Below, piece by piece: positions 27,833 through 63,013 of a DNA stretch of 64,000 nt (the first letter of the stretch is position 1; the number at the start of each line of letters is the position of its first letter). The stretch is from Patescibacteria group bacterium (GTDB lineage Bacteria; Patescibacteriota; Patescibacteriia; 2-01-FULL-39-33), in contig JBAZKF010000001.1 in NCBI GenBank assembly GCA_041650895.1, positions 145,685 through 209,684 on the forward strand. The letters are read 5' to 3'. Both the position numbers and the translations under genes were made by a program. A model generated the notes under the pieces. That model was not told the DNA's origin and did not search any database. It was given only the letters and a program-made list of their open reading frames with translations.

Positions 27833-29251
27833 ATGACAAAAAAAATACTGCTAATTAACCCTGCCCAGTTTCAACCGATCGCCGCCAATCAGCCAGAAAT
27901 CTACGACAAAGAAATAGATTACCTGCCGTCATTGGGAATTTTATATTTGGCTTCCTATTTGAAAAAATTCGGTAATCATGAAATCAAAATTGCGGATTGC
28001 GGCGTAGAAAATATCAGTTACGACGGAATTGGCGATATCGCCAAAGATTTTAAACCGGATATAGTCGGTATAACCGCTTTAACTTTCGTCCTATTAGACG
28101 TCATAGCCATTATTAAAGCGATCAAAACGTCATTTCCCGGGACTTTAATCGTTCTAGGCGGTCCTCATCCGAATTTATACCCCAATGAAACCATTAACCT
28201 GCCCGGAGTGGATTTCATTGTCCTGGGCGAAGGCGAAAAACCGTTTAAGGAGTTGATTGATAATATTGATGATCGCGAAAAATTAAAAACAACACCTGGA
28301 TTGATCTTTAAACTTAATGGAGAAATAATCAACACCGGCCATTGCGAATTAATCAGCAATTTGGACGAATTGCCTTTTCCAGCTCGACAACTGACAAAAT
28401 ATGACAAGTATTTTTCTATCATCGCGCAAAAATCTCCGGTTACCACTATGTTCACTTCTCGCGGCTGTCCTTACCGCTGCCTGTTTTGCGATCGGCCGTA
28501 TTTAGGGAAAATTTTCCGCGCTCGCAGCGCCAAAAACGTCGTTGATGAAATGGCAGAGATTAAAAAAATGGGGATTGAAGAAATCTTCATCTATGACGAC
28601 ACCTTCACCATTAATCGCCAGAGAACTATCGACATTTGCCACGAAGTAATTAACAGAAAATTAGAAATCAATTGGGATATCCGCGCTCGCGTCAATACGG
28701 TTGATGAAGAGGTGCTTCACTGGCTAAAAATAGCCGGCTGCCGGAGAATCCATTTCGGCGTTGAAGCGGGAACTCAAAAGATACTTGATATACTCAAAAA
28801 AGATATCACGCTGGAGATGGTGGAAAAAGTAATCGGCTGGACAAAAAAAGAGGGCATTGAAACCCTCGCCTACTTCATGATCGGCAATCCTTCGGAAACC
28901 TTGGCCGACATTGAACAAACAATAGCATTCGCCAAAAAGATTGATCCGGATTATATTAATGTTTCTATTACCACTCCTTTCCCGGGCACCCAGTTATACG
29001 ATCAGGCTCTGGAAACAGGCATCATCAAAAGCGATGTCTGGAGGGAATTCGCGGCCAACCCTTCAACGCAATTCATTCCGCCGTTATGGACGGAGAATTT
29101 CTCCCGCGACGAGCTGATCGGCTTAATGCGTCAATTCTACGGTTCTTTCTACCGACGCCCCAAATATATCATCAAAAAACTTCTGGCCGTCAAATCCTGG
29201 GGCGAGTTAGTCAGAAAAGCCAAGGCCGGCTGGCAAGTATTAAAATTCTAA
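27833..29251 (+). CDS. B12-binding-domain radical SAM enzyme (class B), paralogue rS1
   Basis: 472 aa. N-terminal VLGGPHPNLYP...VLGEGEKPF (cobalamin-domain signature), SRGCPYRCLFC (CX3CX2C), and C-terminal FYGSFYRRPKYIIKKL. Confidence 0.9.
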   Translation: MTKKILLINPAQFQPIAANQPEIYDKEIDYLPSLGILYLASYLKKFGNHEIKIADCGVENISYDGIGDIAKDFKPDIVGITALTFVLLDVIAIIKAIKTSFPGTLIVLGGPHPNLYPNETINLPGVDFIVLGEGEKPFKELIDNIDDREKLKTTPGLIFKLNGEIINTGHCELISNLDELPFPARQLTKYDKYFSIIAQKSPVTTMFTSRGCPYRCLFCDRPYLGKIFRARSAKNVVDEMAEIKKMGIEEIFIYDDTFTINRQRTIDICHEVINRKLEINWDIRARVNTVDEEVLHWLKIAGCRRIHFGVEAGTQKILDILKKDITLEMVEKVIGWTKKEGIETLAYFMIGNPSETLADIEQTIAFAKKIDPDYINVSITTPFPGTQLYDQALETGIIKSDVWREFAANPSTQFIPPLWTENFSRDELIGLMRQFYGSFYRRPKYIIKKLLAVKSWGELVRKAKAGWQVLKF

Positions 29252-29254
29252 AAC

Positions 29255-30682
29255 CTATTTAAGGACGTTTTTAAAAATGTTAAGTCCCAGCAGAATATCT
29301 TTCAAGTCTGCCAGGGACTTGATTTTTTTTAGCCGATAAATAATATATTTCGGACGTAAATAAAACTTAATAAAGGCTTTGCGTTTTAATTTCAGCAGGG
29401 TATCACTGCTTAAATCGGGCAAATCCATCGGCGGTATATGATTGGAGACTGAACAAAAATCACTCCAATCAAAATCTTTCCTGATGTATCCGCGAGCCTT
29501 TGCTTCTTCATACATGGGAGTTCCCGGATAAGGAATGGCAACAAAAAAGGCTGCTGTGTCCAGATCCAAGCTACAAGCAAAATCAATCGTCTGATTAACC
29601 GTCCAAGGATCTTCGTCAATATAACCAATAATGAATGCTCCGGAAACCAAGATGTCGTTTTTACGGCATAAGTCAACGGCTATTCTAGCTTGTTCCAGTG
29701 TGGCGCCCTTGCACATCTTATCTAAAATTCTCTGCGAGCCCGATTCAAAACCAAAACCGATCCTTTTACAGCCGGCCCGTCTCATTAACTTGAGCATTTC
29801 ATTATTTACCGAATCAACTCTGGCCATAACCACCCAAGAGATATCCAGCTTCCGCCGGATAATCTCTTCACAAAATTCCTTCACTCTATCTTTATTAGCC
29901 GTAAAGAGTTCGTCATGGAAATTAAAAGAAGTAGCCTGGTAATTTTTCATGCATTCTTCAATCTCGGCCAAAACATTACTCACACTCCTAGTACGATAGC
30001 GCCTTTTCCAAACTGATTCCGCCATGCAAAAACCGCAACGATAAGGACAGCCGCGGCCGGATATGATATTAATCGCCTGCCCCGAGTCCGTCGTTCTGGT
30101 CGGCGGCAAGTAATACTTTTCAACCGGCAATAAATCACGAGCCGGGAACGGTATGGTATCAAGATTATCAATCAGCGGGCGGGGTTCTGTTATTAATATT
30201 TCAGCATTATCGCGATAAGCGATGCCTTTAATCACCCCGAAATCGACTTGCTCGGATATTAAGGCGCGGATTAATTCCAAAAAAGTGACTTCCCCTTCGC
30301 CCAAGACGCAAAAATCTATTGCCGGCATACCCCGCATTGTTTCTTCGGCGGCAATTGTCGGATGTGGCCCGCCGACAATGATTTTTATTGCGGGATTAAT
30401 GACTTTTATCCGCCGCGTAATTTCTTTGAGTTGTTTATAGACAGGCGTGGGGAAAGTCAAAGCGATAAATTGCGGCATGATTTCCTTAATCTTTTCATCT
30501 ATCTGATCATAGGACATTTCCAATGCCTCACCGTCAAGAATTGTTATTTCTACTTCCTGTTCATATTGGCGCAAATAAGCCGCCAGATAAGCCAAATTAA
30601 GCGGAGCGGTTTTCCCACCCTGCCCTTCGATACCGTCATAATTAGTGAAAGGCGGATTAATCAATAAAAGTTTATACTTCAT
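29255..30682 (-). CDS. B12-binding-domain radical SAM enzyme (class B), paralogue rS2
   Basis: 475 aa. IVGGPHPTIAA...VLGEGEVTF, GRGCPYRCGFC, C-terminal FIKFYLRPKYIIYRL. Confidence 0.9.
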   Translation of the reverse strand: MKYKLLLINPPFTNYDGIEGQGGKTAPLNLAYLAAYLRQYEQEVEITILDGEALEMSYDQIDEKIKEIMPQFIALTFPTPVYKQLKEITRRIKVINPAIKIIVGGPHPTIAAEETMRGMPAIDFCVLGEGEVTFLELIRALISEQVDFGVIKGIAYRDNAEILITEPRPLIDNLDTIPFPARDLLPVEKYYLPPTRTTDSGQAINIISGRGCPYRCGFCMAESVWKRRYRTRSVSNVLAEIEECMKNYQATSFNFHDELFTANKDRVKEFCEEIIRRKLDISWVVMARVDSVNNEMLKLMRRAGCKRIGFGFESGSQRILDKMCKGATLEQARIAVDLCRKNDILVSGAFIIGYIDEDPWTVNQTIDFACSLDLDTAAFFVAIPYPGTPMYEEAKARGYIRKDFDWSDFCSVSNHIPPMDLPDLSSDTLLKLKRKAFIKFYLRPKYIIYRLKKIKSLADLKDILLGLNIFKNVLK

Positions 30683-31653
30683 AAGTCGGTCTTTTTAAAA
30701 AAATTCTTTACGGGTAAAAAAATAGCAATTAAAATTAATAAATAAGCGAGACTAAACAAATGTACTATGAAACCAGAAATAATAGACGCTTCCTTATTTA
30801 AGCCTAATAGTCCGAAGCTGATAGCCCAACCTGTTTCATAAGTTCCGAAGTCCCACAATCCCTGGATAGGCAAAAAACTTATTAATTGACTAAAAATCAA
30901 ACCCAGAGTTACTTTAAGCCAGTTAAAATCTATATTTAGGGCACGGAAAAAAACTACGATCATTAAAGAAGCGGACGCCAGCCACAAGAACGAAATCAAC
31001 AAATTAGTCAAGTAAACGGGCCAGGAACGAATTGTTTTGACGCTTGTTGCAACCTCTTCCAACTTAGTAGCCAGCTTAGCGCCAAATTGAAATTTAGTCA
31101 ATCTTGCCCAATGCATTAAAATAACAACCGCTTTAACCAGCCAATCAAGGTAGAATAATATGGCAATCGTGGCTAACCCAAGCATAAAACAGCTTAGATA
31201 GATTCTATTAGGCGGAATGTAGCCGGGGTTAAGCAAAATAAAACCGATCAGAAAAGAAAAAGCCACTGCCAAAAGATCAAAAAATCTGGCTACCAACAGG
31301 ACACTAAGCCCTTCTGCTATGGCTACATTCTCACGTTTTTTTATGAAATAAACAAAACTTAACTCACCGCTTCTAAACGGCATTAAATTACAAAAAAAAG
31401 TATAACCCAAAGTAATTTTCAAGGAACTCAAAAAACTTATTTTCTTAGAAAGAATCAAGACTTGCCAGCGCCAAGCCCGCAAACAAACGCCGATAAAATA
31501 AAAAATAAACGCGATTAAAGCGTAAGTCCATGATATATTTGAAATAATATCCCTGGCTTGAGTGAAATCAATCTGAGTTAAAAGCAAACACAATAAAATT
31601 ATGGTTACGGCCAAGGAGATTGTTTTTTTGCGCTTGGTTATCTTTTTCAACAT
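30679..31653 (-). CDS. UPF0104 / lysylphosphatidylglycerol-synthase-TM-region (flippase-like) family membrane protein
   Basis: 324 aa with about 8 TM helices. Includes LRAWRWQVLI and FCNLMPFRSGELSFVYF. Start and stop overlap the neighbouring genes (ATGA, TAATG). Confidence 0.65.
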   Translation of the reverse strand: MLKKITKRKKTISLAVTIILLCLLLTQIDFTQARDIISNISWTYALIAFIFYFIGVCLRAWRWQVLILSKKISFLSSLKITLGYTFFCNLMPFRSGELSFVYFIKKRENVAIAEGLSVLLVARFFDLLAVAFSFLIGFILLNPGYIPPNRIYLSCFMLGLATIAILFYLDWLVKAVVILMHWARLTKFQFGAKLATKLEEVATSVKTIRSWPVYLTNLLISFLWLASASLMIVVFFRALNIDFNWLKVTLGLIFSQLISFLPIQGLWDFGTYETGWAISFGLLGLNKEASIISGFIVHLFSLAYLLILIAIFLPVKNFFKKTDL

Positions 31654-33488
31654 TATTTTATCAAGTTAAGAAACCACATCTTGCCGGGACTGGTTTCAGC
31701 TTCTATTATTCCCGCCTGAGGCCAATCGACAATGTTTATCGCTTGGCTACTGGAGGAAATCTGCCCCGCTAATTCAGCATCATAACCAATTATATATTTT
31801 ACATTATAAACGTCAAAAGCCGACTGAAGTTTTTGCTCCTGCAATAAATGGTTGATAGTATTCGGAGAAAAATAGACAGTTGATACTCCGGTTAAATAAT
31901 TCAACAGAGGATGCAATGACCTATTGCCTACGGCCACCGCCTCTTCCGGTTTGATGGCGACACCCCAAGAACTGATTTGCTCAGCTGAATAAGCAATTTT
32001 CAAATTTATATTATTATCATATCCCCGGCCCCAATAGACATGATTAGCCTGGACTAAGCCATAAATGATTAAAAGAATAATCACCCCGCCGGCCAGCCGA
32101 CTAAATCTCTTTGCAACATAATAATCGCTGATCATCTTAGCTAAGCTCATCAAGCCCAGACTGATAAAAAGAGCAATCACCCAACCCCAATCCATTAAAT
32201 GATTGCGTGAGGCCAGAACGACGTAACTGGAAATAAAAATAGAAAACACCAGCCAACTGACAAAAAGATTGGTTAGATTCTTGTCTCGACGACTCAAGTC
32301 TTTAATACCCAATAACATTAAAATAAAAAACAGTGATCCGCCAATATACTCCAAGGCGAGAAATCGAGAAAGATGCGCCAGCAGATTATTGGATCCGACA
32401 AGAGCCCGCTCCGCCAAATTGATGGGGCGTATGCCGATATTGGCCCCCACCTTAATCAAGTCAATGCTCTTCAATAATCCTCGACCAGCTATGTCGGAAT
32501 TAAATTTGTCTAAAACCGTTTTCTGATCAAAATAAAAAGTATAGGGATCGGGGAAAAGATGGCCGTAAAAATTAAACTCAGACCAATTATTGGTTTGCGT
32601 CTCGCTGGCAAAAAACACCCTGAAATAATCATTATTACCGCTAAAACCGAATATCGCCGGCAACCAGAAAAAAGCTAATATTACAAAAAAAGGAACAAAC
32701 ACCAAACTGATGTTTCCAAGACTGCTTTTGACGGCATTGTTCCTTAAACCGGTTAAGACGGTTTTAAAACGTAACCAAATCAATCGGAAAAAAGACAAAT
32801 CCGTACGGGAATCGATAATAAGGGGTTGCTCTGAGGACTGAAAAATCAACCAAAAAAATAAAACTGGCGGAAATAAGAACATCACTTCCCGCGACAGGCA
32901 AGCTAGCGACAAAAAGACTCCGGACAAAGGCAGAAAAAAATATCTGCCCTTGACTTTACGGCCGATAAAAAACAAAACGCAAAAAACTGAAAAATACAGC
33001 ATCGCGAATTCGTAGGTGCCGATAGTTTGAACCATCTGGGAATTAAACGGCAATAAGATATAAACCAAAGAAAATATTGCGGCTATTTCCCAATCAAACA
33101 AATAAAACACGACGGCCGCAAATAAAACCAAAGCCAATGCCTGAATAATTACGGCAATGACTATTAAAGTGTTGAAATCTGGCAAGCCGATCAACTGAAA
33201 TAATGCAGCATAAGACCAGGTAGTAAACTTATTGCCCTGGGTACTGAGCTGAGCCCGCTGGCTGACTAAAGACGGCGCCAAAACGACATTGCGGCTGTCC
33301 TCCATGCCGTAAACCCCCGTTTGGACAAGATTCCTGGCCAAAATAAAATTCTCCGCTTCGGCCGGTTGGGCAGTACTGCCCTTAAAAAAAACCGGAAAAT
33401 ACCAAAAACCGGCTGCAACAAAAAAAACTACGGGCAATAAAACAAAAAGAATCGAGCTCTTAAACCTAAAATTTGGCTGTTGCGACAT
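31653..33488 (-). CDS. GT-C-like (ArnT/PMT_2-like) polytopic membrane glycosyltransferase, putative
   Basis: 611 aa with more than 12 TM helices. It has an acidic first loop, AEAENFILARNLVQTGVYG, and a C-terminal soluble segment of about 100 aa. Confidence 0.5.
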   Translation of the reverse strand: MSQQPNFRFKSSILFVLLPVVFFVAAGFWYFPVFFKGSTAQPAEAENFILARNLVQTGVYGMEDSRNVVLAPSLVSQRAQLSTQGNKFTTWSYAALFQLIGLPDFNTLIVIAVIIQALALVLFAAVVFYLFDWEIAAIFSLVYILLPFNSQMVQTIGTYEFAMLYFSVFCVLFFIGRKVKGRYFFLPLSGVFLSLACLSREVMFLFPPVLFFWLIFQSSEQPLIIDSRTDLSFFRLIWLRFKTVLTGLRNNAVKSSLGNISLVFVPFFVILAFFWLPAIFGFSGNNDYFRVFFASETQTNNWSEFNFYGHLFPDPYTFYFDQKTVLDKFNSDIAGRGLLKSIDLIKVGANIGIRPINLAERALVGSNNLLAHLSRFLALEYIGGSLFFILMLLGIKDLSRRDKNLTNLFVSWLVFSIFISSYVVLASRNHLMDWGWVIALFISLGLMSLAKMISDYYVAKRFSRLAGGVIILLIIYGLVQANHVYWGRGYDNNINLKIAYSAEQISSWGVAIKPEEAVAVGNRSLHPLLNYLTGVSTVYFSPNTINHLLQEQKLQSAFDVYNVKYIIGYDAELAGQISSSSQAINIVDWPQAGIIEAETSPGKMWFLNLIK

Positions 33489-33497
33489 AATTTAGAG

Positions 33498-34586
33498 TTA
33501 CTTTAAATGAAAATTCCCAAAAACCGCCCTAAACAAATGCCAAGGGCTCATCATAATATTAGGAAGTTGATAACAATAATGAGTACACCAACATTTCTTA
33601 TTCTTAATATCTAACCGTTGCTGTTTCGCAAGGGATGACTGCCAGGCCTTTCTAAAATCATAATCATAATCCCGCAGATTACCTATCTTGGGCAACATTT
33701 CGCAATTATACATATTACCCCAAGCGTCAATAACGGGGAAAAATAAAGCTGAGCGGCAAGGTAGGATTTGTTTTTTTTGCTTCATTATTTTTAATGCTAT
33801 CTTATGGTAATAAGCATAAAACAGCTTATTGGCCAAATCATTGGCCAATGTCTTACTCTTGAATAAAACACGGCTAAGCAATTCCTCATATTGCCCCAAA
33901 TCTACGGGTGCGATTTTTTGCGGGTCAAACGAACCGCGGATTACTTCAATCGTATGATATGTGATGCCGGGATGCTGATCAACAAAATCAATCACCGCGG
34001 CGATATTATCTTGGTTTACATTAGAAATAGTGGTATTAACACTGACCTGCAACAACTCATTAGTCTTAGCGATAGCCGTCAATTTCTCATACGTATCCAA
34101 AAAAAGCTTAAAGTTTCCAGCTATTCCTCTTACCCGATCATGCACCTCTCCGATTCCGTCCAGAGATAGGACTACTTTTAGTTTTATTGGCACGCGAACC
34201 AGTATCCTTTCGACTTGATCCGCTATCTTATCCGGCAAAAGACAATTAGTCGGTATGGCAATTTTTCTAGTGGCGCTGCAACGGTAAAAAATCTCGCAAA
34301 TTTCCGGCAAATCCGGCCGCAAAAACGGTTCACCTCCACCCAAAGTAACGCTTCTTATGTCGCCAATGGTTTGGGTAAATTTTTCTATTTCCGCTAAAGA
34401 AAGCTCCTTAGTTTCCGTGTTTATCACTTGCCAGTTAAAACACATTAGACAACGGGAGTTGCACTTGTTGGTTACTTGAAAAATTAATCCGTAAAGCGGC
34501 CATTCCCTTTTTGATAAAGAATAGAAATAGAACTTGCTTACAGGAAAATATTGTTTAATTATTTTTAATCGTTTAATAAAATCCAT
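33498..34586 (-). CDS. Radical SAM enzyme with Cys-rich SPASM/twitch-like C-terminus (no B12 domain)
   Basis: 362 aa. VTNKCNSRCLMC (CX3CX2C), GGGEPFLRPD, C-terminal LPCRS...YNCE...KKCWCTHYC. Confidence 0.8.
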   Translation of the reverse strand: MDFIKRLKIIKQYFPVSKFYFYSLSKREWPLYGLIFQVTNKCNSRCLMCFNWQVINTETKELSLAEIEKFTQTIGDIRSVTLGGGEPFLRPDLPEICEIFYRCSATRKIAIPTNCLLPDKIADQVERILVRVPIKLKVVLSLDGIGEVHDRVRGIAGNFKLFLDTYEKLTAIAKTNELLQVSVNTTISNVNQDNIAAVIDFVDQHPGITYHTIEVIRGSFDPQKIAPVDLGQYEELLSRVLFKSKTLANDLANKLFYAYYHKIALKIMKQKKQILPCRSALFFPVIDAWGNMYNCEMLPKIGNLRDYDYDFRKAWQSSLAKQQRLDIKNKKCWCTHYCYQLPNIMMSPWHLFRAVFGNFHLK

Positions 34587-34589
34587 AAA

Positions 34590-54779: not shown

Positions 54780-55514
54780 TTATAGTTTGCCGAATTTAAT
54801 CATGGCTCTGAATTGAACCGGGCTGACGGCAGAATCGACGGCATTGCGTTTGAGCAACCATCGGTCGCTCTTAGGTCTGACAACGCCCTTAGCCACAGTC
54901 AAAGCCGCCTTAAAGCCGCTAGCTTTCAGTAACCCAATGATTTGCTGGTTATAGCGACCATAGGGATAGGCAAAATAAGACACCGGTTTGCAATATTCCC
55001 GTTCAATGAAGGCTTTGGACTCGATAATTTCCTGCCTAGCCTCAGTCAAACTGATTTTAGTCAGCTTGGCATGGCTGACGGTGTGGGGTTCAAAATCAAT
55101 CAAACCGGAAGCGGCCATCTCCGAAACCTGATCCTTGTCCAACAATGGCAGATCAATAGACGGCAAACCGGTCGCTAAAAAAATCGTAGCGGGAAAATTA
55201 TATTTTTTCAATAAAGGAAAAGCTATGGAATAATTGTCTGTATAACCGTCATCAAAAGTAATGGCGACTGTCCGAGGTGGAATTTTACCTGCCGTAAGAT
55301 AGTCCAATAATGCAGACAAAGAAACAATATTATATCGCTGTTGTTTCAGATAAGCCAACTGAGCTGAAAAATCCTGGGACTCAACGGTGAAAAATCTGCC
55401 ATTATCGCCTACGGAATGATACATCAAAATAACTGCGCGATTAGGCAGGGCGGGGAGAAAGGCCAGTAAGCTAGATAAAATATTTTTTAAAAAAAACTTA
55501 ATTCTCTTCGCCAT
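54780..55514 (-). CDS. Polysaccharide deacetylase (NodB homology domain)
   Basis: 244 aa. AITFDDGYTDNY (TFDD), FPATIFLATG, EPHTVSHAKL (HxxxH), YFAYPYGRYN. Confidence 0.85.
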   Translation of the reverse strand: MAKRIKFFLKNILSSLLAFLPALPNRAVILMYHSVGDNGRFFTVESQDFSAQLAYLKQQRYNIVSLSALLDYLTAGKIPPRTVAITFDDGYTDNYSIAFPLLKKYNFPATIFLATGLPSIDLPLLDKDQVSEMAASGLIDFEPHTVSHAKLTKISLTEARQEIIESKAFIEREYCKPVSYFAYPYGRYNQQIIGLLKASGFKAALTVAKGVVRPKSDRWLLKRNAVDSAVSPVQFRAMIKFGKL

Positions 55515-56589
55515 AGGCTTTTTTGATATTAACGACTAAATTTTTAATACTATAAGAAGCTACGACAATGCGACGCAACTCAACAGCCATAACCTGCTTC
55601 TCGGATGAATCCAATTCAGACAATTTCTTTATTTTGACCGCCAATTCCCGACTGTCAGCTTTTTCCAATAATAACAAATCTTGGTAGTCGCCCAGGATCA
55701 CGGAAAAAGTTTGATTATAAACTACGGCCGGCACGCCACAGGCCAACGATTCCAAAACCACTTTGTCCAATCCCCCGGTGGGGCACAAGTTAATGCTTAA
55801 ATCGGCTTGCTGATAATAATAAGGCAGGTCCTTATTGGGGATATTGCCTATCCAATCAATATAATCTTCCAGTCGGCGTTTTTTTATTTCCTCTTTCAAT
55901 AAGGCAGCGTATCTCAAACCATCAAGATTCGGCGGTGAGCCGATAAAAGACAAGGTGATATTTTTTATTCCTAATTCATGCACCAAAATATCAACAGCTT
56001 TAATCAATAATAATTGATTTTTTATTTCGCTGATCCGGCCGACGCTGACGATTTGTAATTTATCCTGTCGAGCCGTCGCCCAATCTTTAAGACAGAATTT
56101 ATCAATATCAATGCCATGGCCGACGATTTTCACTTTGGCACTAGCAAGCCGGAAACTTTCGGGCGAGGCGGTAAAAATAATATCAGCCAACAATTCAGCT
56201 AATCTTAATTTAAAATTAACCGCTTTATGCGCATACCAGAGGCCGATAATTTTGCCCTGCAAACGCCAGATCAAACCAGCCAGAATGACATAAACAACAT
56301 TCATGTGAACAAAAACAGCATCATAATCATGGCGAACCAACCATAAATATTTATAAAAACGCCACAAGTAACGCCAACGCGACGGCCTGTCTTCCTTGCC
56401 CAAAGATAAAACCCTGACATTGGCAGGCAAATCATACTTACCTTTATATAGGCAGATAACAGTCACTTGAGAAAAATTATTGGCAAACTCTTTAAGCCAA
56501 TCATGAAAAAATCCCAACAGACCGTCGGCGTCATCCACTTTCTGAGTCAAGATTAATAATTTCAATTTTTTATTTTTTGGCAATGGCAT
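55498..56589 (-). CDS. Glycosyltransferase family 4
   Basis: 363 aa. GT-B C-terminal half with GRISEIKNQ, GGLDKVVLESLACGVPAVV. Confidence 0.8.
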   Translation of the reverse strand: MPLPKNKKLKLLILTQKVDDADGLLGFFHDWLKEFANNFSQVTVICLYKGKYDLPANVRVLSLGKEDRPSRWRYLWRFYKYLWLVRHDYDAVFVHMNVVYVILAGLIWRLQGKIIGLWYAHKAVNFKLRLAELLADIIFTASPESFRLASAKVKIVGHGIDIDKFCLKDWATARQDKLQIVSVGRISEIKNQLLLIKAVDILVHELGIKNITLSFIGSPPNLDGLRYAALLKEEIKKRRLEDYIDWIGNIPNKDLPYYYQQADLSINLCPTGGLDKVVLESLACGVPAVVYNQTFSVILGDYQDLLLLEKADSRELAVKIKKLSELDSSEKQVMAVELRRIVVASYSIKNLVVNIKKAYGEEN

Positions 56590-57172
56590 ATAAATTCAAA
56601 CCTAATTCGAAGCTGCCGCCGGTGATTTTATCGGCCGCAAAGCCGGTGGCGGAAAACTGTTTAAATAATTCCTGTCGACTATAGAACTGCTGATGCTCAC
56701 CGATCTCATCCGGTGAAACTATTTTAAACGCGGCCAATAACGACAGCAGACCCTTAGTTTTTCCCCAGGGAGTCGTCACTATAAGCAACCCGCCGGGAAC
56801 AAGCGCTCGATAAGATTGAGCCAGAATATTTAAAGCCGCGGTTTCATCCAAATGTTCCAAAACTGCCAGCATGGTTACAACATTAAAACAACTGGGACTG
56901 ACCGGCAAATTATCGCCGGTTTTGAATTCGTATTTTTTTAAGCTAACTCCGTCGATCATTCCTTCGCTGACCGATTTATCCAATCCGACTTTGGCCGAAA
57001 ACTTAACCTGCGCCAAAAAATAAGGATAAGAACCGCAGCCGATATCAAGAATAGCTCCCGACCTTAAATCAGCAGGAATCAACCTGTCAACTTTATTAGC
57101 CCGACGCCGGGCCAAGTATTTCTCTAAGACGCCATACCCCCTGGTAGGAGCGGCGGAACCGGTTATTTCCAT
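56570..57172 (-). CDS. Class I SAM-dependent methyltransferase
   Basis: 200 aa. ILDIGCGSYPY, FNVVTMLAVLEHL, LVPGGLLIVTTP. Confidence 0.8.
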   Translation of the reverse strand: MEITGSAAPTRGYGVLEKYLARRRANKVDRLIPADLRSGAILDIGCGSYPYFLAQVKFSAKVGLDKSVSEGMIDGVSLKKYEFKTGDNLPVSPSCFNVVTMLAVLEHLDETAALNILAQSYRALVPGGLLIVTTPWGKTKGLLSLLAAFKIVSPDEIGEHQQFYSRQELFKQFSATGFAADKITGGSFELGLNLYAIAKK

Positions 57173-57858
57173 AAGTTAAACTTAATAATATACCAAATCG
57201 CCGCCAAACCATCTTTCCAGCTTATTTTCTTGCCCTCTTCATAAGTGCGGCCGGCATAAGAAATACCGACTTCATAAATCCGGAATTTACCCCTGGCTAT
57301 CAGGGCGGTAATCTCCGGTTCAACGCCGAATCGATTGGCAGTCAGGCGAGTTTTCAGATAATCAATAACCGGACGATTGAACGCCTTATAGCAAGTCTCC
57401 ATATCTGTTAAGGTCAAATTACTCATAATATTGGAAAAAATAGTCAAAAAAGTATTACCCAGATAATGCCAAAAAAAGAAAACACGGTGAGGTTTGCTGG
57501 TAATGAAACGAGAACCATAAACAACATCAGCCTTGCCGTCAATTATCGGCCCCAATATTTCCTGGTACTCTTGCGGATTGTATTCTAAGTCAGCGTCTTG
57601 AATAATCAATAGATCGCCGGTTGCCACATTAAGGCCACGTTTGATGGCCGAGCCTTTGCCCTCGTTCTTATCCTTTAGAATTACGACGCATTTATCCCGC
57701 GGGCTTGAAATAATATCTCTAGTGCCGTCGGTGGAACCATCATCAATAATAATAATTTCCTTCTCTACGCCGGCAAGCGGCGCTGCCTCCACCTGGCGCA
57801 GTAGTTCCAAGATAGTTTTATGTTCATTATAGACTGGTATGATAACTGACAATTTCAT
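57163..57858 (-). CDS. Glycosyltransferase family 2, polyprenyl-phosphate sugar synthase-like (231 aa, paralogue of 49069..49764)
   Basis: LSVIIPVYNEHKTI, IIIDDGSTDGT, NEGKGSAIKRG, IQDADLEYNP, and C-terminal EEGKKISWKDGLAAIWYIIKF. Confidence 0.85.
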   Translation of the reverse strand: MKLSVIIPVYNEHKTILELLRQVEAAPLAGVEKEIIIIDDGSTDGTRDIISSPRDKCVVILKDKNEGKGSAIKRGLNVATGDLLIIQDADLEYNPQEYQEILGPIIDGKADVVYGSRFITSKPHRVFFFWHYLGNTFLTIFSNIMSNLTLTDMETCYKAFNRPVIDYLKTRLTANRFGVEPEITALIARGKFRIYEVGISYAGRTYEEGKKISWKDGLAAIWYIIKFNLWK

Positions 57859-57873: not shown

Positions 57874-59346
57874 TTAATCGCGTTTAGTATTGATGTCCGG
57901 AGATTTAGGCAAGAAAAAAGAGACTAAAGCCATAAAACCATCAAACAAAATTTTTATATCGTCTAATGATCTAATGCTAAAAATCTTCTTAAGGATGAAT
58001 TTCGGACGAAAATAAAAACTGCGATACATGATTTTATATAAATTCTTTATTTCTTCCGCTGAAAGATTCTCCAATCTCATAACCGGCTTAGCCAAATTAA
58101 AATCATCCCAATTTTCGCTCAACAACAAATCACGTTCCTTGGCCCAATTAAACATGGCCGTGCCGGGAAACGGCGTAGTAATATTGACGATCAGCAAATC
58201 GGGATTTATTTTCTTAACAAAACGGATGTTCTTTTCAATCACTTGGCGACTGTCGCCGGGATTGCCGACCATGAAAGCCAGACGGCATTCTATCCCCGCC
58301 TGCTTAGTCCATTTGACGGCATTGATCACTTGCGGCAAATTGATTTTTTTATTGATATTCTTCAATACGGCCTCATCAACATTTTCCACCCCATACATGA
58401 TCTGATGACAACCGGCGTCTGACATTTTCCGCAACATGGCCTCGTCAACATAATCAACTCGGGCAAAACACGTCCAAGACAAATCCATTTTATTTTTTAT
58501 CAGCAGATCGCACAAGTCAATGACGTTCTGACGAAAAACAGTAAAAGTATCATCATAAAACATGATCTGCCTGATACCGTAATTATCGGCCAAGTATTTT
58601 ATCTCGGCAAAAATCCCGGTGGCCGACTTAAAGATCATCTGATCACCCAAGGTTTTATTGCAGAAAGTGCAACGCCCCGGACAACCTCGGCTAGTCATTA
58701 AACTCATGGCCGGCAACTTCTTATACGAGCCCTTAGCCGGCCGATATTTATCAATCGGCAATAAATCATAAGCCGGCAAAGGCAGATCATCCAAATTGGC
58801 AATCCGCCGACGCGGCGCGTTACGGATTATTTGTTTTTCGCCATTCAATTCTTTCTTATAAACCACGCCGTCAATCTCTTCAATCTTCTTGCCGGATAAT
58901 ATTTCTCCCAAAGTAATCTCCCCTTCGCCGATAACCACCGCATCAACAAATGGTTGATTAATAACCTCATCAGTAACAAAGGTTGCATGAACGCCACCGA
59001 AAATAATCAAAGCATTAGGATAATATAATCGGCAAATTTCCGCCGCCTGATAAGCCTTTTTAATTTGTCCGGTGGTGGCAGTAAAGCCGATCACTCTAAT
59101 ATCCCTGTGATGATCAACAAAATTTTCCTTTAGATAATCGCCGAAGGCCTGGACCGAGGGGCAGGAAACTTCACAATCAATTATCTCTACACTTTGATCC
59201 TGTTGACGGACATAGCCGGCAATGGAAGCCAGCCCCAAAGGAGGGAAATTTGAGTTAATCTCACGCCAAATATTATTCTCATCGCCATAATAATCAGGCG
59301 GAGCGATCAACAAACAATCCAAATTTTTTTGATTATCTTGCGACAT
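57874..59346 (-). CDS. B12-binding-domain radical SAM enzyme (class B), paralogue rS9
   Basis: 490 aa. IFGGVHATFVT...VIGEGEITL, SRGCPGRCTFC, C-terminal MYRSFYFRPKFILKKI. Confidence 0.9.
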   Translation of the reverse strand: MSQDNQKNLDCLLIAPPDYYGDENNIWREINSNFPPLGLASIAGYVRQQDQSVEIIDCEVSCPSVQAFGDYLKENFVDHHRDIRVIGFTATTGQIKKAYQAAEICRLYYPNALIIFGGVHATFVTDEVINQPFVDAVVIGEGEITLGEILSGKKIEEIDGVVYKKELNGEKQIIRNAPRRRIANLDDLPLPAYDLLPIDKYRPAKGSYKKLPAMSLMTSRGCPGRCTFCNKTLGDQMIFKSATGIFAEIKYLADNYGIRQIMFYDDTFTVFRQNVIDLCDLLIKNKMDLSWTCFARVDYVDEAMLRKMSDAGCHQIMYGVENVDEAVLKNINKKINLPQVINAVKWTKQAGIECRLAFMVGNPGDSRQVIEKNIRFVKKINPDLLIVNITTPFPGTAMFNWAKERDLLLSENWDDFNLAKPVMRLENLSAEEIKNLYKIMYRSFYFRPKFILKKIFSIRSLDDIKILFDGFMALVSFFLPKSPDINTKRD

Positions 59347-59351: not shown

Positions 59352-61559
59352 TTAAAGGAATCGACTAAAAAACGCTCTGAATCCGTCACTGGTCAACAAC
59401 CATAAATAGTCAACCAAAACAATAACGATAACGACCGCAACCCGACTCGGCCAGCGGTAAAAATATTTTCTTAACCCGTTAACGGCCAACAAGGTTAATA
59501 GCAAAGCCAGGACAAAATACAAACGAGATGACACACCGGTCCAAAGCAAAAACATAAACGACGGCAGAATCAGGCACTTAACCAGGAACCTCTGATCGGC
59601 GGTAAACTCCCGCCATTTAATCAATCCTAACGGCACCAAAAGCCAAGCAGCCAGATAAACGCCGACGATACTCTTAACAACAAAAAACGGCTGATATTCG
59701 GAACCGCTGGGAGCGCTAATGCCCAGTTTATACCAATCCAAATATGAATAATGATAAATGAAATAAACCACGATTTGCCAAGCGATTAAGGGCAAGCCGA
59801 CCGCTAAGGTTGATAAAAATAATTTTTTGAGTTTTTCGGCTCGAGGCAGTTGCGGATGGAAACATATCACCAGATACAGGAAAGCCATACCCAAACTGCT
59901 ATATTCTTTCCATAACATGCCAACAACAACCATCAACGAAGTTAAAAATAAATTAAAGTTGTTAGGCCGTTTATAAAATCTAATGACGCCGATAGCGGCC
60001 AAAACCCAGAATAATTGGGCGCCCGACTCGGTAAACAAATCCAAGCCATACTTAAGTAACGGATAGGAAGAAATATAAATCAACGCTCCCAGAAGCGCCA
60101 TTCCTCTATTTTTAAAAAACAAATAAAATAAAACGTAAACGGCTAAAGCCAAAAAAACATAAAATATAATCGCCTCTATCTCAAAAGCTAACGATAGATT
60201 GCCACCGGTTAAAAACGACAGTCCGGCAATACCCATAGGCCCCAACGGTTTTAAAATTCTGGAAGGAAAACTCTCCGCCATTTGTCCCATAAACAGCTTA
60301 GCCGTTTCCATATACTGATAAGCATCGCCGTTAATGCTAAAACCGACAAAATTGAGCCGAATAAACACGTTCAACGCTACCGCGGTTAAGATTAAAAGAA
60401 TCGGCCAAAAATGATTATTGGTCGACTTGGTCGGCCGGCACTTTTTGTCTATGGCTGTTTGCCAGCTTTTCAGATAAAGCGCCAAATTTTCCTCTCGGCC
60501 GGGCAAAATGTTAATCGCCGATTCGGCCGACTGGCTGAGTTGCCGGCGCAAGCCAATATTCTGAATAATCTTTTTCATGGCGTCAGCTAATTTTTCTTCG
60601 TCGCCAACGGGCGTGATTAATGCGCTGACTCCGTCTTTCAACACCTCACCGGCGCAACCGACATCAGTCATCACTACCGCCAAACCGCAACTGGCGGCTT
60701 CTATTATCACCATCCCCCAACCCTCATAATCAGAACTCAAAACATAACTATCGGCTGAGTTGTAATAATCATAAATATTGTCAGTCCAACCGATCAAAAA
60801 GATTTTATCCTCCAAGCCGGATTCTTTTATTTGTTGGGCGAGTTTGTCTTTTTCCGGACCGCGACCGACTATAAGCAAAACCGCCTCCGGCAATTGCCGG
60901 GCAACCGTGGCGAAAGCTCTGATCAGCAACGGCAGATTTTTCTGTTTTACCAATCGAGCCATAGTCAAAAAAACAGTTTTGCCGACTAAGCGGCCGAAAA
61001 TCTCCGGCTTAGTTTCGCTGAATTGCTTCTCGGGCTTAACATAGACAGGAACAACAACAATTTTATCTTCGGCTATATGCAAATCATTAACCAAAGTATC
61101 CTTTATCCGCTCACTGACTGCGCGCACGCTGTCGGCTCGCTTAATCAGCCAGCGCCCCAGATAATAACGGCAAAAGTTAATAGGATTTTCATTGCGCCAA
61201 TAAGTCGCGCTAAAAAAATCGCCATGTTCCTGAATATTCAAAGCGCTCTTGAATTTCCTAGCCAGCAATAATCCCATCAGCGACAATTCAAAAGGATCTT
61301 GAACCGTTATGACATCATAATTATTCTGGCGGAACAGTTTTTTCGCTAACCGATACATATTGAATAGTGCCGCTAATCGGTTGCCGCCACCCGTGCCGTA
61401 AGCCGTTACTTTTTCTGATAATTTAATTTCTTGCGCTGGCGTAGCGGGCACGATAATATCATAAGCGTCCGTCATAACGCCATACTCAATCAAACGCCGA
61501 GTTACGGGTGATGAGGAAACGAATACGCCTTTATCGGTGCCTAAGTTTAATACTTTCAT
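59352..61559 (-). CDS. Fusion protein: N-terminal GT4 glycosyltransferase + C-terminal polytopic membrane (GT-C-like) domain
   Basis: 735 aa. Residues 1 to about 370 are GT-B (KQKNLPLLIRAF...SDYEGWGMVIIEAASCGLAVVMTDVG). Residues from about 385 onward are about 11 TM helices, starting at NHFWPILLILTAVALNVFIRL...INGDAYQYMETAKL. Confidence 0.8.
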   Translation of the reverse strand: MKVLNLGTDKGVFVSSSPVTRRLIEYGVMTDAYDIIVPATPAQEIKLSEKVTAYGTGGGNRLAALFNMYRLAKKLFRQNNYDVITVQDPFELSLMGLLLARKFKSALNIQEHGDFFSATYWRNENPINFCRYYLGRWLIKRADSVRAVSERIKDTLVNDLHIAEDKIVVVPVYVKPEKQFSETKPEIFGRLVGKTVFLTMARLVKQKNLPLLIRAFATVARQLPEAVLLIVGRGPEKDKLAQQIKESGLEDKIFLIGWTDNIYDYYNSADSYVLSSDYEGWGMVIIEAASCGLAVVMTDVGCAGEVLKDGVSALITPVGDEEKLADAMKKIIQNIGLRRQLSQSAESAINILPGREENLALYLKSWQTAIDKKCRPTKSTNNHFWPILLILTAVALNVFIRLNFVGFSINGDAYQYMETAKLFMGQMAESFPSRILKPLGPMGIAGLSFLTGGNLSLAFEIEAIIFYVFLALAVYVLFYLFFKNRGMALLGALIYISSYPLLKYGLDLFTESGAQLFWVLAAIGVIRFYKRPNNFNLFLTSLMVVVGMLWKEYSSLGMAFLYLVICFHPQLPRAEKLKKLFLSTLAVGLPLIAWQIVVYFIYHYSYLDWYKLGISAPSGSEYQPFFVVKSIVGVYLAAWLLVPLGLIKWREFTADQRFLVKCLILPSFMFLLWTGVSSRLYFVLALLLTLLAVNGLRKYFYRWPSRVAVVIVIVLVDYLWLLTSDGFRAFFSRFL

Positions 61560-61567
61560 CTCAATAA

Positions 61568-63013
61568 TTATTTAGTAATAAATTTCTTGGCCAATTTAAA
61601 TTCCACCGGCCAGAAAAAAAATTTCAATTTCCAACGCAGTTTACATAAACAAATAAAACAGAATTTGAGTAATTTATTGGAAGAGACAGTTGAATTCATC
61701 GCGCTCTTGAATGACAAGGCGCCGAATCTGACATAGGCCTCCATTGATTCCACAAAGTCCTTGTCCTTAACCCAAGGAAAATTCTCTACTGACATGTAGC
61801 TCAACTCGTTCTCTGAAACCTTTTTCCATTCCTCAAGCGACTGCGGTTCCCGCCAGCCGGCCTTGACGCATTCCTCATATAACTCTGATCCGGGGTAGGG
61901 GCGAAACGCTTGAGGGCCCAAAATCTGGACCTCGTCGCTTAAGGCGATTAAGCGATCAATCAACCTCAGGGTTTCCTGCATATCACTCCGCGACTCGCCA
62001 GGCAAACCAATCATGAATGAATACTGAGGTATGATGCCATGCTTGAGGCAGGCCTTAGCGGAAGCGACTATGTCATCGGCGGTAACGTCTTTTTTGATCA
62101 TTTTTAAGATACGGCTACTGCCGGATTCGGCGCCGAAAGACAACAAATAACAGCCGGACTGCTTTAACTTGGCTAAAAGTTCATCATCCACCATCCCCGG
62201 CTTAAGGTAATCGGCGCGAATAGTGGTTTCCCAAGGCAAAACCAGATCTTCCCTAATCATGCCGTCAATGATCGCCTTAGCGCGGCTGATATCCACAAAA
62301 AAGTTCTCGTCCCAAAAACGCAATTTCTTGCCCTGGAAATACTCCTTGGCCTTAATTATCCGTAAATCCTCAAGCACCTGCTCGGTCGTCCGAGCGCGCC
62401 AATGATTTTTCAAAATCGCATTAATGCAAAAAGTACAACGATGCGGACAACCGCGCGAAGTTAGAGAAGGAATCAAATATAGATGCTCTCTGATTTCCTG
62501 AGGCACTAAATCCCAATTAAATAACGGCATGGCTTGGGGTTGATGCAGGGGTTGCGGCTGATTGACAATAACTCTCCCGTCAGCGCAATAAGCGAGGCCT
62601 TTGATTTCTGCCAGGGATCGGCCTCGCGCCAACTGCAACATGGTTTCTTCGCCTTCGCCGATAACTACTATATCAATCAGCGGATTTTTGGCTGTCTGCT
62701 CAATAAAAAAAGTCGGATGCGATCCGCCCCAAACAATTTGGGCGGCGGGATTGATTCTTCTGGCCAACTCGGAGATTTTCAAGGCATTGGAGATCTGCAT
62801 GGTCATAACTGAAACACCGATCAAATCAAAATCCTTAATCGCTTGCTCCAATAAGCTCAAATAATCCTTCTGCCTGACGCCGTCTATCATCTTGACCTCC
62901 ACTCCTTGACTATCTAAGTAGGTGGCAATACTCAACAAACCGACAGAAATAGAGCTGTCGTAATTATCTTTAACTATATTAAATTCGGGATTGATCAGTA
63001 AAACTTTTTTCAT
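61568..63013 (-). CDS. B12-binding-domain radical SAM enzyme (class B), paralogue rS10
   Basis: 481 aa. VWGGSHPTFFI...VIGEGEETM and SRGCPHRCTFC. Confidence 0.9.
   Translation of the reverse strand: MKKVLLINPEFNIVKDNYDSSISVGLLSIATYLDSQGVEVKMIDGVRQKDYLSLLEQAIKDFDLIGVSVMTMQISNALKISELARRINPAAQIVWGGSHPTFFIEQTAKNPLIDIVVIGEGEETMLQLARGRSLAEIKGLAYCADGRVIVNQPQPLHQPQAMPLFNWDLVPQEIREHLYLIPSLTSRGCPHRCTFCINAILKNHWRARTTEQVLEDLRIIKAKEYFQGKKLRFWDENFFVDISRAKAIIDGMIREDLVLPWETTIRADYLKPGMVDDELLAKLKQSGCYLLSFGAESGSSRILKMIKKDVTADDIVASAKACLKHGIIPQYSFMIGLPGESRSDMQETLRLIDRLIALSDEVQILGPQAFRPYPGSELYEECVKAGWREPQSLEEWKKVSENELSYMSVENFPWVKDKDFVESMEAYVRFGALSFKSAMNSTVSSNKLLKFCFICLCKLRWKLKFFFWPVEFKLAKKFITK

Follow-up and report, generated by a model that had tools for sequence, protein, structure and literature searches.

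Ten B12-type radical SAM genes in a surface-glycan locus

Ten open reading frames between positions 27833 and 63013 of the 64-kb stretch of DNA analysed here (the window) each score above the Pfam gathering thresholds for both the B12-binding (PF02310) and the Radical_SAM (PF04055) domain, bearing out the original prediction of ten B12-type radical enzymes in one locus. The CxxxCxxC motif is retained in all ten, and ten such paralogues in a row of about 31 genes are far more than chance would give. The first, rS1 (27833-29251; B12-binding 83 bits, Radical_SAM 94 bits), lies on the plus strand. The remaining nine lie on the minus strand: rS2 (29255-30682; 80 and 80 bits; motifs AxTxP, GGPH and GEGE), rS3 (35551-36975; B12-binding 40.7 bits, gathering score 32.1), rS4 (39562-41058; 82 and 62 bits; GxSxM, WGGIHP and GEGE), rS5 (42255-43670; 77 and 91.5 bits; motifs conserved), rS6 (43672-45021; B12-binding 44 bits), rS7 (47611-49050; 90 and 90 bits; GGHH signature), rS8 (51550-53709), rS9 (57874-59346; 65 and 75 bits; GxTxT, GGVH and GEGE) and rS10 (61568-63013; 76 and 78 bits; GxSxM, GGSH and GEGE). 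The true start of rS6 is 45021 rather than 45207, and an identical 449-aa protein (P0121) exists. In rS8, a MetW-like class I SAM methyltransferase (MetW 72 bits, residues 538-715) is joined to the C-terminal side of the B12-binding (57 bits) and Radical_SAM (110 bits) domains as a fusion. Two further minus-strand genes encode related enzymes. rSx1 (33498-34586; Radical_SAM 54.7 bits) is a radical SAM protein without a B12 domain, whose orthologue in contig L013 additionally bears SPASM. rSx2 (45035-47599; Pfam PMT_2, Radical_SAM and SPASM) is a membrane GT-C-like protein with seven TM-like segments fused to a radical SAM/SPASM enzyme; its relatives in 12 metagenome loci are 51-84% identical and essentially full-length in 10 of the 12.

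The window represents 6.7% of a 957,791-bp contig, which encodes MFA5124375.1, a protein identical to rS1. Methionyl-tRNA synthetase, earlier noted as short, indeed has 498 aa comprising only the catalytic and anticodon-binding domains, and is 89-91% identical to its counterparts in Candidatus Buchananbacteria and Patescibacteria MAGs. The organism is a Patescibacteria (CPR) groundwater bacterium nearest Candidatus Buchananbacteria with a genome of ~0.96 Mb, so that the initial guess of a reduced genome was correct.

The genes belong to a hypervariable surface-glycan locus running from about 23 kb to beyond the 64 kb of the window. Directly upstream, minus-strand anchor genes (19258-22992: GT2, DUF2304, GT2, an NAD-dependent sugar epimerase/dehydratase and a GtrA-like gene) are 82-93% identical in a sister MAG, in which the locus diverges beyond the gene for a priming phosphoglycosyl transferase (Bac_transf; 23051-24400, plus strand). 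On the same strand, rS1 closes an operon composed of a polyprenyl-phosphate-sugar-synthase-like GT2 (24414-25292), a class I methyltransferase (25307-26011), a polysaccharide deacetylase with DUF3473 (25998-26837) and a FemAB-like gene (26785-27828); NCBIfam best matches of the latter two are XrtA-system EPS families. A long minus-strand glycan operon, extending to 63990 and ending with rS2, interleaves glycosyltransferase and radical SAM genes. Adjoining rS2 is a gene for a flippase-like LPG_synthase_TM protein (30679-31653; Pfam 111 bits, TIGR00374 above cutoff), followed by a 611-aa polytopic GT-C candidate with 11 TM-like segments and a weak PMT_2 match (31653-33488; E = 0.0019). Pfam and NCBIfam further identify, all on the minus strand, GT2 genes (34590-35546, 49069-49764, 57163-57858), GT4 genes (36984-38213, 50435-51577, 53696-54775, 55498-56589, 59352-61559, 63010-63990), a GT9 gene (41122-42258), a Wzx-type flippase (38217-39551), class I methyltransferases (49769-50425, 56570-57172) and a PgaB/IcaB-like deacetylase (54780-55514). 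The inventory thus comprises about eleven cytoplasmic glycosyltransferases and two membrane transferases of GT-C-like type, along with the Wzx flippase and the second flippase-like protein. Neither a Wzy polymerase nor a chain-length regulator was recognised in the locus. Nearly every glycosyltransferase gene is adjoined by a tailoring gene, and ten of these tailoring genes are the class B radical SAM genes.

Conservation of the B12-binding domains

Identity between paralogues is 23-37%. Orthologues of each paralogue in the related contigs L019, L021 and L022, on the other hand, are 79-92% identical and retain the motif signature of their subfamily. The ten enzymes therefore represent ten orthologous families that diverged long ago and are each conserved, and related loci carry 3-6 B12-radical SAM genes per roughly 22 kb. 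As examples, the rS2 orthologue in L019 is 91% identical (ω 0.02-0.09), rS4 motifs are kept in L021, L022 and L024, the rS7 signature in L021, L022 and L027, and the rS8 fusion in L021, L022 and L024, where the ORFs measure about 2.2 kb. With dN of 0.06-0.16, saturated dS and ω of roughly 0.03-0.10, the B12 domains are, as judged from substitution patterns, under strong purifying selection; this includes rS3 (ω about 0.065), rS5 (0.03-0.07) and rS6 (0.08-0.10).

Whether the domains retain their cobalamin contacts was evaluated against the motifs defined from the OxsB, TsrM and TokK structures (PMC9204698). The G-x-S/T-x-X motif is present in 9/10 enzymes, as is the GG motif, the exception to the latter being rS6 with a single Gly, a feature shared with OxsB; the Glu of the GE motif is found in all ten. 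Within the rS1 family, GxT, GG and GE are conserved in 117-120 of 120 members. The original prediction also described unusual motifs in two paralogues, and these sequences are as it reported: rS3 has FEAE in place of the GEGE of other enzymes, and rS6 has I-G-S-H-G in place of G-G-x-H. A reading of them as degenerate does not hold, however, as the variants recur across 99 rS6 and about 150 rS3 relatives. Orthologues of rS3 in L019, L022 and L023 keep GFSVK, GGPH and FEAE, and among 150 representatives of its 'GxS[VI]K / xEAE' subfamily GG is found in 144, the second Glu in 145 and AE in 38. In the 99 members of the 'DRWE-loop / xGSHG / GEPE' subfamily of rS6, the loop residues R, W and E occur in 98, 95 and 97 and P in 99, G-x-H-G in 99/99 and E-P-E in 97-99. 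In alignment, the departures of rS3 and rS6 from the usual motifs are signatures conserved within their subfamilies and not decay.

Structural comparisons bear on the same question. The AF2 model of rS1 (pLDDT 92.6) contains a five-strand Rossmann fold plus β-hairpin, typical of class 1 Cbl-rSAM enzymes (PMC13331322). When this model is searched with Foldseek, the aminoglycoside-sugar-bound AprD4 structure (6FD2) ranks first (TM 0.75/0.78), and AprD4 also heads the list for the full-length profile. The best whole-fold match is thus a cobalamin-free enzyme: AprD4 is a dehydratase of sugar 1,2-diols and, like ArsL homologues, belongs to the B12-rSAM network without binding cobalamin (PMC12931638). 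By analogy, the N-terminal domains, or some of them, might be cobalamin-free relics in enzymes performing cobalamin-independent sugar radical chemistry (dehydration/deoxygenation, epimerisation or oxidation) with little or no need for corrinoid. The low Pfam B12 scores of rS3 and rS6, the weakest of the ten, fit such a scenario, as does the failure of their N-domains, searched singly, to match any Cbl domain of known structure at E ≤ 1; the rS1 N-domain alone finds TokK at 3e-6. However, the sequence match to AprD4 is confined to the radical SAM barrel: the N-domain adds 5 bits, and AprD4 is not among the PDB matches of the N-domain profile at E ≤ 1. All matches of that profile are cobalamin-binding-type domains of six class B enzymes (TokK 2e-16, OxsB 3e-16, TsrM 6e-11, CysS 1e-10, 4Q37 7e-8 and MgmA 1e-7). 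Moreover, the motifs in contact with the tail of the cofactor (GG, GE and G-x-S/T) are almost invariant, the N-domains are under the strong purifying selection described above, and in precisely the rS6 (DRWE) and rS3 (Lys) families no feature is conserved more sharply than the β3-α3 loop, the hotspot at the lower face. Relic domains are accordingly unlikely, and a lost or different cofactor is disfavoured for rS1-rS10. The residue predicted to lie under cobalt varies among the ten (Leu, Pro, Lys, Met, Gly, the DRWE loop, Val, Thr, Thr and Met from rS1 to rS10), which suggests differently tuned chemistries.

Origin of the corrinoid

In agreement with the original prediction that no cob/cbi, btu or ECF gene occurs in the 64-kb window, Pfam and NCBIfam scans of the window ORFs of at least 100 aa revealed no family for cobalamin synthesis, salvage or uptake, and Rfam revealed no cobalamin riboswitch in the window. 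A TP_methylase gene (11555-12241, minus strand), encoding the sole tetrapyrrole-methylase fold in the window, was rejected as a cobalamin gene; its product is RsmI, the 16S rRNA 2'-O-methyltransferase (TIGR00096, 237 bits versus a cutoff of 167.9). This absence is no more than chance and is evidence neither way, because a window of this size would miss a transporter or salvage locus in about 93% of cases.

The paradox previously seen in B12 enzymes without B12 genes is consequently weak. Not only are 64 kb uninformative, but corrinoid auxotrophy is the majority state of bacteria, 86% having cobamide-dependent enzymes and 37% producing the cofactor (PMC6461909), and a curated Parcubacterium genome from 2017 contains a B12 enzyme and was judged unable to synthesise B12 (PMC5220378). 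Likewise, the proposed heavy demand is overstated: because cobalamin stays bound and acts as a catalytic cofactor, ten enzymes imply broad dependence and not a large flux.

As deduced from its lineage and its reduced, roughly 1-Mb genome, this CPR bacterium most likely relies on external corrinoid. CPR bacteria are without TonB/outer-membrane uptake (PMC6744442). There is only a slight chance that outside supply is unnecessary, with a corrinoid pathway or full salvage/remodelling route encoded in the 93% of the contig outside the window. In a groundwater study, vitamin pathways were generally lacking from most Patescibacteria MAGs, but cobalamin, along with thiamin, was scored as an exception (PMC8672522), so complete absence of the pathway cannot be assumed. 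Yet the roughly 30 steps of de novo synthesis (PMC6461909) are hard to fit into a CPR genome of this size with minimal biosynthesis (PMC8672522), the Parcubacterium mentioned above had no pathway, and about 133 kb of related CPR glycan loci, which had been chosen for other reasons, yielded neither a riboswitch nor a cob gene.

Substrate and reaction of the enzymes

The neighbouring genes point to a lipid-linked substrate. NCBIfam best matches of the GT2 at 24414-25292 are polyprenyl-phosphate-sugar synthases (PpgS, PgfS, ArnC, AglJ), and modules combining GT2, B12-rSAM and flippase-like or GT-C-like genes recur: with the flippase-like gene in other CPR genomes, and beside PMT_2-like (GT-C-like) genes in an Anaerolineae MAG. 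In the homologue P0105, the B12-rSAM and flippase-like parts are even fused.

Methylation is hinted at by the methyltransferase fused to rS8 and by three more methyltransferases in the locus, and sugar-acting class B enzymes such as GenK, GenD1, Fms7 and MoeK5 are C-methylases (PMC12931638). None of the ten proteins reached an NCBIfam equivalog cutoff, the best matches being HpnJ (at most 252 bits versus 578) and BchE (at most 243 versus 481). Neither of these is a methylase, so the reaction may be of another type.

Sizeable sub-threshold NCBIfam matches to enzymes of ribosomal peptides (ApyD, rSAM_ocin_1) and of lipids (rSAM_ladder_B12, HpnJ, HpnR), together with the fact that the LPG_synthase_TM family of flippase-like proteins handles lipids too, would also accommodate enzymes that act on a ribosomal peptide or membrane lipid and are merely located in a glycan locus. 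This is improbable given that a glycosyltransferase gene adjoins each radical SAM gene, a pairing retained in relatives. Additionally, the intergenic gaps of a few to tens of bases leave no space for precursor peptides, protease and peptide exporter genes are absent from the locus, and the window contains no genes for synthesis of hopanoids or other lipids.

On balance, we consider it reasonably probable that rS1-rS10 tailor lipid-linked sugars by corrinoid-dependent radical chemistry with an imported cofactor, probably as C-methylases. Each would combine an N-terminal Rossmann-type corrinoid domain with a [4Fe-4S]/SAM barrel. The corrinoid, for which the community or a host is the most likely source, would be imported, bound base-off without a His ligand and, with SAM, would support radical tailoring of sugars on polyprenyl-phosphate-linked intermediates in the cytoplasm, C-methylation being the most likely reaction and HpnJ/BchE-type ring contraction or cyclisation a possible one. 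Flipping and transfer would then bring the tailored product to the cell surface. The components of such a system are already known; what is undescribed is their tenfold array in a genome of roughly 1 Mb.

Gene content of the window and layout of the glycan locus

The ORF listing and Pfam matches divide the window into housekeeping genes (1-18 kb) and a single long glycan-biosynthesis region that occupies the rest of the stretch from about 19 kb. The housekeeping part encodes a MurA-like EPSP-fold enzyme, a PEGA protein, a dCMP deaminase, a HIT protein, TatD, CvpA, a 498-aa MetRS, RsmI, a LutA/LutB-like pair, a ZIP transporter, tRNA-Val and tRNA-Ala. The original prediction of a reduced-genome, CPR-type organism was borne out. 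MetRS is 89% identical to that of JBAYFY01 (Ca. Buchananbacteria) and 91% to that of JBAZRV01 (Patescibacteria group), and rS1, the first of the radical SAM enzymes described below, is identical to MFA5124375.1, recorded by NCBI under 'Patescibacteria group bacterium' on a contig of 957,791 bp, in keeping with the small genomes of Patescibacteria (CPR).

The sole regulator-like gene noticed in 64 kb is a 141-aa ORF (5844-6269, plus strand) with a faint, sub-threshold likeness to receiver domains (Response_reg, E = 0.013). A LUD-domain/4Fe-4S protein and a CCG-domain protein (LutB- and LutA-like) are encoded side by side on the minus strand (13303-15209), with no LutC recognizable beside them. 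The 620-aa ORF at 6758-8620 (minus strand) has about 13 TM-like segments and overlaps the TatD gene by 56 nt; neither Pfam nor NCBIfam yields a family for it at E ≤ 1, and no link to corrinoids or corrinoid uptake was found for it.

In the glycan region, ten ORFs, designated rS1 to rS10 (27833-63013; rS1 on the plus strand, all others on the minus strand), match both PF02310 (B12-binding) and PF04055 (Radical_SAM) above the Pfam gathering thresholds. The number of B12-domain radical SAM enzymes predicted for this locus was thus correct. Two further radical SAM ORFs, rSx1 (33498-34586) and rSx2 (45035-47599), have no B12 domain.

Nearly every glycosyltransferase (GT) is paired with a tailoring gene. 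The minus strand carries the pairs GT4-rS10, GT4-rS9, GT2-methyltransferase, GT4-deacetylase, GT4-rS8, GT4-methyltransferase and GT2-rS7, followed by a GT-C/radical SAM fusion, rS6, rS5, GT9-rS4, Wzx, GT4-rS3, GT2-rSx1 and a group composed of a GT-C-like gene, a flippase-like gene and rS2. On the plus strand, a priming transferase, a GT2, a methyltransferase, a deacetylase, a FemAB-like protein and rS1 are encoded in this order. Parts of a Wzx/Wzy-type locus are present, namely a Bac_transf match (228 bits), a Polysacc_synt flippase (38217-39551) and about eleven GT1/2/4/9 genes. The Wzy/O-antigen-ligase and Wzz families have no match in the window part of the locus, which continues past the window end, and two PMT_2-like GT-C proteins may take their place.

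The GT2 of the rS1 operon (24414-25292) best matches the polyprenyl-phosphate sugar synthases PpgS, PgfS, ArnC and AglJ, in all cases below cutoff, and the best matches of the deacetylase and FemAB-like proteins are XrtA-system EPS families. Orthologues of rS1 at 55-60% identity, amounting to more than 100 cluster representatives, are present in several CPR lineages, an Anaerolineae MAG and a deltaproteobacterial MAG; they adjoin a GT2, often accompanied by PMT_2-like GT-C genes and a flippase-like LPG_synthase_TM gene. One rS1 homologue of 798 aa (P0105) combines B12-binding, Radical_SAM and LPG_synthase_TM in one chain, a physical tie of the radical enzyme to the type of flippase-like protein that neighbours rS2 in the window. 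The 854-aa product of rSx2 (minus strand) is likewise a fusion, of a polytopic PMT_2-type (GT-C) membrane domain and a radical SAM/SPASM part. Its relatives, 51-84% identical, were found in 12 metagenome loci and are essentially full length in 10 of these. The locus also contains a split counterpart, rSx1 with a PMT_2-like gene (31653-33488).

The gene arrangement corresponds to Arn-, Gtr- and PpgS-type lipid-carrier glycosylation with a radical step added, from which we infer that the radical SAM enzymes would carry out sugar tailoring on intermediates still linked to polyprenyl phosphate, ahead of export. The likeness to ArnC/ArnD/ArnEF/ArnT, GtrABC and PpgS with its GT-C partner is one of parts: a polyprenyl-phosphate-sugar synthase-like GT2, a deacetylase, a flippase-like protein or GtrA, and a PMT_2-type GT-C, although the window scores all fall below the family cutoffs. 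We know of no three-component lipid-carrier glycosylation system in which the carrier-linked sugar undergoes a radical SAM step. A RiPP pathway was rejected, there being no room for a precursor ORF and the peptide-processing genes being missing.

Related contigs carry three to six B12-radical-SAM genes per ~22 kb. In a comparison with a sister MAG (238,918-bp contig), identity is 82-93% across the flanking genes from SIMPL to GtrA. On the far side of the priming transferase, gene order differs, rS1 and rS2 are only 55% and 41% identical, respectively, and the FemAB-like gene is missing (window 23051-36975). The region looks like a recombination-prone, hypervariable surface-polysaccharide locus at a fixed chromosomal site.

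Ten conserved families with distinct motif signatures

The CxxxCxxC cysteines (C212, C216 and C219) are invariant in all ten enzymes, which score 62-110 bits against PF04055. As an identical 449-aa protein is on record, the start of rS6 was placed at 45021 and not at the upstream GTG. Exact-sequence look-ups of rS9 (57874-59346) and rS10 (61568-63013) returned no record, unlike those of rS1, rS6 and MetRS of the same contig; the deposited gene calls probably use other start codons. The product of rS8 (51550-53709, minus strand) carries a fused C-terminal MetW-like class I SAM methyltransferase, and ORFs of ~2.2 kb are likewise present in three of the related contigs (L021, L022 and L024).

The N-terminal domains were aligned to motifs defined from OxsB, TsrM and TokK: G-x-S/T-x-X in the beta3-alpha3 loop, Gly(-Gly) on beta4 and Gly-Glu at alpha5 (PMC9204698). 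In these structures the cofactor is bound base-off and His-off, and the last residue of G-x-S/T-x-X sits under the cobalt (Asn186 in OxsB, Arg69 in TsrM, Tyr74/Trp76 in TokK); the one or two beta4 glycines form the DMB pocket, the alpha5 Gly-Glu hydrogen-bonds the cofactor tail, and a beta-hairpin comes after the Rossmann fold (PMC9204698; PMC13331322). All three cofactor-tail motifs are present in eight of the ten enzymes. In rS3, AE replaces GE. The rS6 protein has a single beta4 glycine, as does OxsB; its GE is replaced by PE, and its beta3-alpha3 loop is lengthened by an insertion of eight residues that contains a conserved DRWE.

The original prediction had pointed to these two paralogues as departing from the GEGE and GGxH motifs, rS3 being considered degenerate, and had called for an alignment with characterized class B enzymes. 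The departures are real (FEAE in rS3, IGSHG in rS6), and rS3 and rS6 are the two that deviate in that alignment, but the variants are fixed in their families and are not signs of degeneration. Among 99 proteins of the rS6 family, the loop T-S-T-P-[IV]-D-R-W-E-[CV]-P is near-invariant (R in 98, W in 95, E in 97, P in 99), G-x-H-G is found in 99/99 and E-P-E in 97-99/99. The rS3 protein falls within a large G-x-S-[VI]-K clade, in which Lys takes the position of TsrM Arg69; of 150 representatives of this clade, 144 have GG, and GE (91) and AE (38) each occur frequently. The rS1 family conserves the motifs in 117-120 of 120 proteins, the lower-face residue being Met or Leu. Moreover, dN of the B12 domains is 0.06-0.16 relative to orthologues of 79-92% identity, with omega at ~0.03-0.10, rS3 and rS6 included; since dS is saturated, these omega values are rough. 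Together, the family-wide alignments and dN/dS rule out motif decay in rS3 and rS6.

Pairwise identity among the ten enzymes is only 23-37%, yet each has orthologues in related contigs that keep its own motif signature, indicating ten old families and not a recent amplification.

The rS6 family is otherwise nearly confined to CPR bacteria, two further members being annotated as Nanoarchaeota (DPANN) and Candidatus Borrarchaeum (Asgard) (P0181 and P0221). This spread suggests that small-celled or sediment lineages may have exchanged genes between domains. Four rS3-related representatives (P0307, P0309, P0334 and P0364) are 1,800-2,300 aa long and contain three or four separate B12-radical-SAM-like stretches, and many others are fusions of 600-1,300 aa.

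Probable cofactor binding and relation to known enzymes

In the AF2 model of rS1 (pLDDT 92.6), the strands 4-9, 50-55, 77-81, 105-109 and 128-130 are followed by a hairpin (157-161/164-167). This 5-strand Rossmann fold with beta-hairpin was seen in the model of rS1 only, while PF02310 scores above gathering in all ten. The whole-fold best match of rS1 is AprD4 (PDB 6FD2; TM 0.75/0.78, 23% identity), a radical SAM 1,2-diol dehydratase that acts on a sugar and is the best full-length profile match as well. AprD4 does not bind cobalamin (PMC12931638), so the fold alone is no proof of this cofactor, and the N-domains of the window could be cobalamin-free in the same manner. [quoted passage not shown] Searched singly against the PDB, the rS1 N-domain finds TokK at 3e-6. 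Those of rS3 and rS6 find no solved cobalamin domain, which is weak evidence given that a single-sequence search is barely sensitive.

We therefore disfavour the proposal, raised alongside the original prediction, that these domains have lost cobalamin or hold another cofactor: their motifs are family-fixed, omega is low and the N-domain profile points to Cbl-binding domains. The ten N-domains as a set quite probably bind cobalamin; for rS3 and rS6, binding is a little less probable than for the set.

Like TokK, CysS, TsrM, OxsB and MgmA/QCMT, the window enzymes combine a predicted N-terminal 5-strand Rossmann domain and beta-hairpin with a CxxxCxxC barrel. They have the G-x-S/T-x-X, GG and GE motifs in common with that group and, as there, no DxHxxG histidine. 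They differ from these enzymes in that identity is only 17-20%, the lower-face residues are not the same and ten families are gathered in one locus. Moreover, the known substrates of the former are antibiotic or protein intermediates and not polysaccharide precursors.

The nearest annotated families are HpnJ and BchE, with scores far below the equivalog cutoffs. HpnJ (TIGR03471, cutoff 577.6 bits) is the best NCBIfam match for seven of the ten enzymes, at 88-252 bits; the highest score, 252, belongs to rS1, whose match is near end-to-end (52-472 versus 48-466 of 472). BchE (TIGR02026, cutoff 481 bits) is approached most closely by rS2, at 243 bits. Scores against the AprD4 family (NF033070, cutoff 500 bits) are 30-130. 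On these curated cutoffs, membership of all three families is ruled out. Hopanoid families are absent from the window ORFs in the Pfam scan, a weak HpnB/HpnH-like similarity being far below cutoff, and no chlorophyll genes are present in the window.

Neither HpnJ nor BchE is a methylase. In the hopanoid cyclitol-ether side-chain module, the GT2 HpnI puts an amino sugar on the lipid, followed by the deacetylase HpnK and by HpnJ, a B12-type radical SAM enzyme acting on the sugar. The GT2-deacetylase-radical SAM logic is the same in the window, but the deacetylase is of the PF01522 type whereas HpnK is YdjC-like, and the GT2 matches polyprenyl-phosphate-sugar synthases instead of HpnI. With these differences, the sub-cutoff scores and the lack of hopanoid genes, the likeness to HpnJ is one of logic and not of membership.

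To our knowledge, GenK, GenD1, Fms7 and MoeK5 are the sole characterized precedent for class B enzymes on carbohydrates. By description, they are C-methylases that methylate unactivated sugar carbons (PMC12931638), and the window locus is rich in methyltransferases. In contrast to the arrangement found here, each of their pathways employs one or two such enzymes, and the substrates are soluble aminoglycoside or phosphoglycolipid intermediates.

Corrinoid supply and significance

That the window holds no cobalamin synthesis or uptake gene was confirmed, and the same is true of salvage genes. Pfam and NCBIfam scans of ORFs of at least 100 aa detected no cob/cbi, btu, ECF-CbrT or BtuM families, and an Rfam scan revealed no cobalamin riboswitch (RF00174) in the window or in ~133 kb of related loci. 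The TP_methylase ORF at 11555-12241 was rejected as a corrin methylase; it is the rRNA methylase RsmI (TIGR00096, 237 bits versus a cutoff of 168).

The paradox that the original prediction drew from this absence is neither demonstrated nor unusual. The window amounts to 6.7% of the 957,791-bp contig. Any 64 kb taken at random would miss a transporter locus of 3 kb in about 93% of cases, and finding none is thus the outcome expected by chance. Furthermore, among 11,000 bacterial species, 86% have cobamide-dependent enzymes and only 37% produce cobamides (PMC6461909), and a curated Parcubacterium that has a B12-dependent mutase was considered incapable of B12 synthesis and reliant on other sources (PMC5220378). 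TonB-ExbBD is missing in CPR, consistent with the lack of an outer membrane (PMC6744442). These reports make B12-dependent enzymes without B12 synthesis a known and common condition, and our organism is likely a corrinoid auxotroph. A total absence of cobalamin-related genes should not be assumed, since a groundwater survey counted cobalamin as an exception among the vitamin pathways that Patescibacteria MAGs generally lack (PMC8672522). The present case differs from known corrinoid auxotrophy in that ten glycan-tailoring enzymes of non-essential appearance, and not an enzyme of central metabolism, would account for the dependence.

What is new, then, is not the apparent paradox, which is ordinary B12 auxotrophy in a lineage known to scavenge cofactors, but the scale and arrangement: a single glycan locus in a ~1-Mb genome holds ten distinct class B families. 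About 15 kb (~1.6%) of this genome is given to ten B12-type radical enzymes in a cluster whose sole predicted role is the surface glycan. We found no description of B12-radical-SAM arrays in CPR glycan loci in the literature.

Taken to its furthest, the gene order would suggest an assembly line of one glycosyltransferase and one radical enzyme per step, in which sugars are rebuilt on the lipid carrier in a corrinoid-dependent manner with cofactor from the community or host; as a joint reading, we consider this unlikely. Nearly every residue of a surface glycan of about ten sugars would then be rebuilt by its own corrinoid-dependent radical SAM enzyme, through C-methyl branching and, for the HpnJ-like rS1 and rS2, contraction of an amino-sugar ring to a carbocyclic cyclitol. 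Unable to make the cofactor, the organism would have a coat whose structure hinges on corrinoid supplied by its community or host, and host attachment or phage evasion might depend on it as well. Such an assembly line, if true, would represent polysaccharide chemistry of a kind so far undescribed.

We know of no characterized class B radical SAM enzyme that acts on polysaccharide or lipid-linked sugar intermediates. Since the ten families are conserved, differ in the residue predicted to lie under the cobalt and have no characterized counterpart, they constitute a candidate set for new carbohydrate radical chemistry. For the organism, they would connect surface composition in an episymbiont-type bacterium with a cofactor probably obtained from others, a linkage that is testable.
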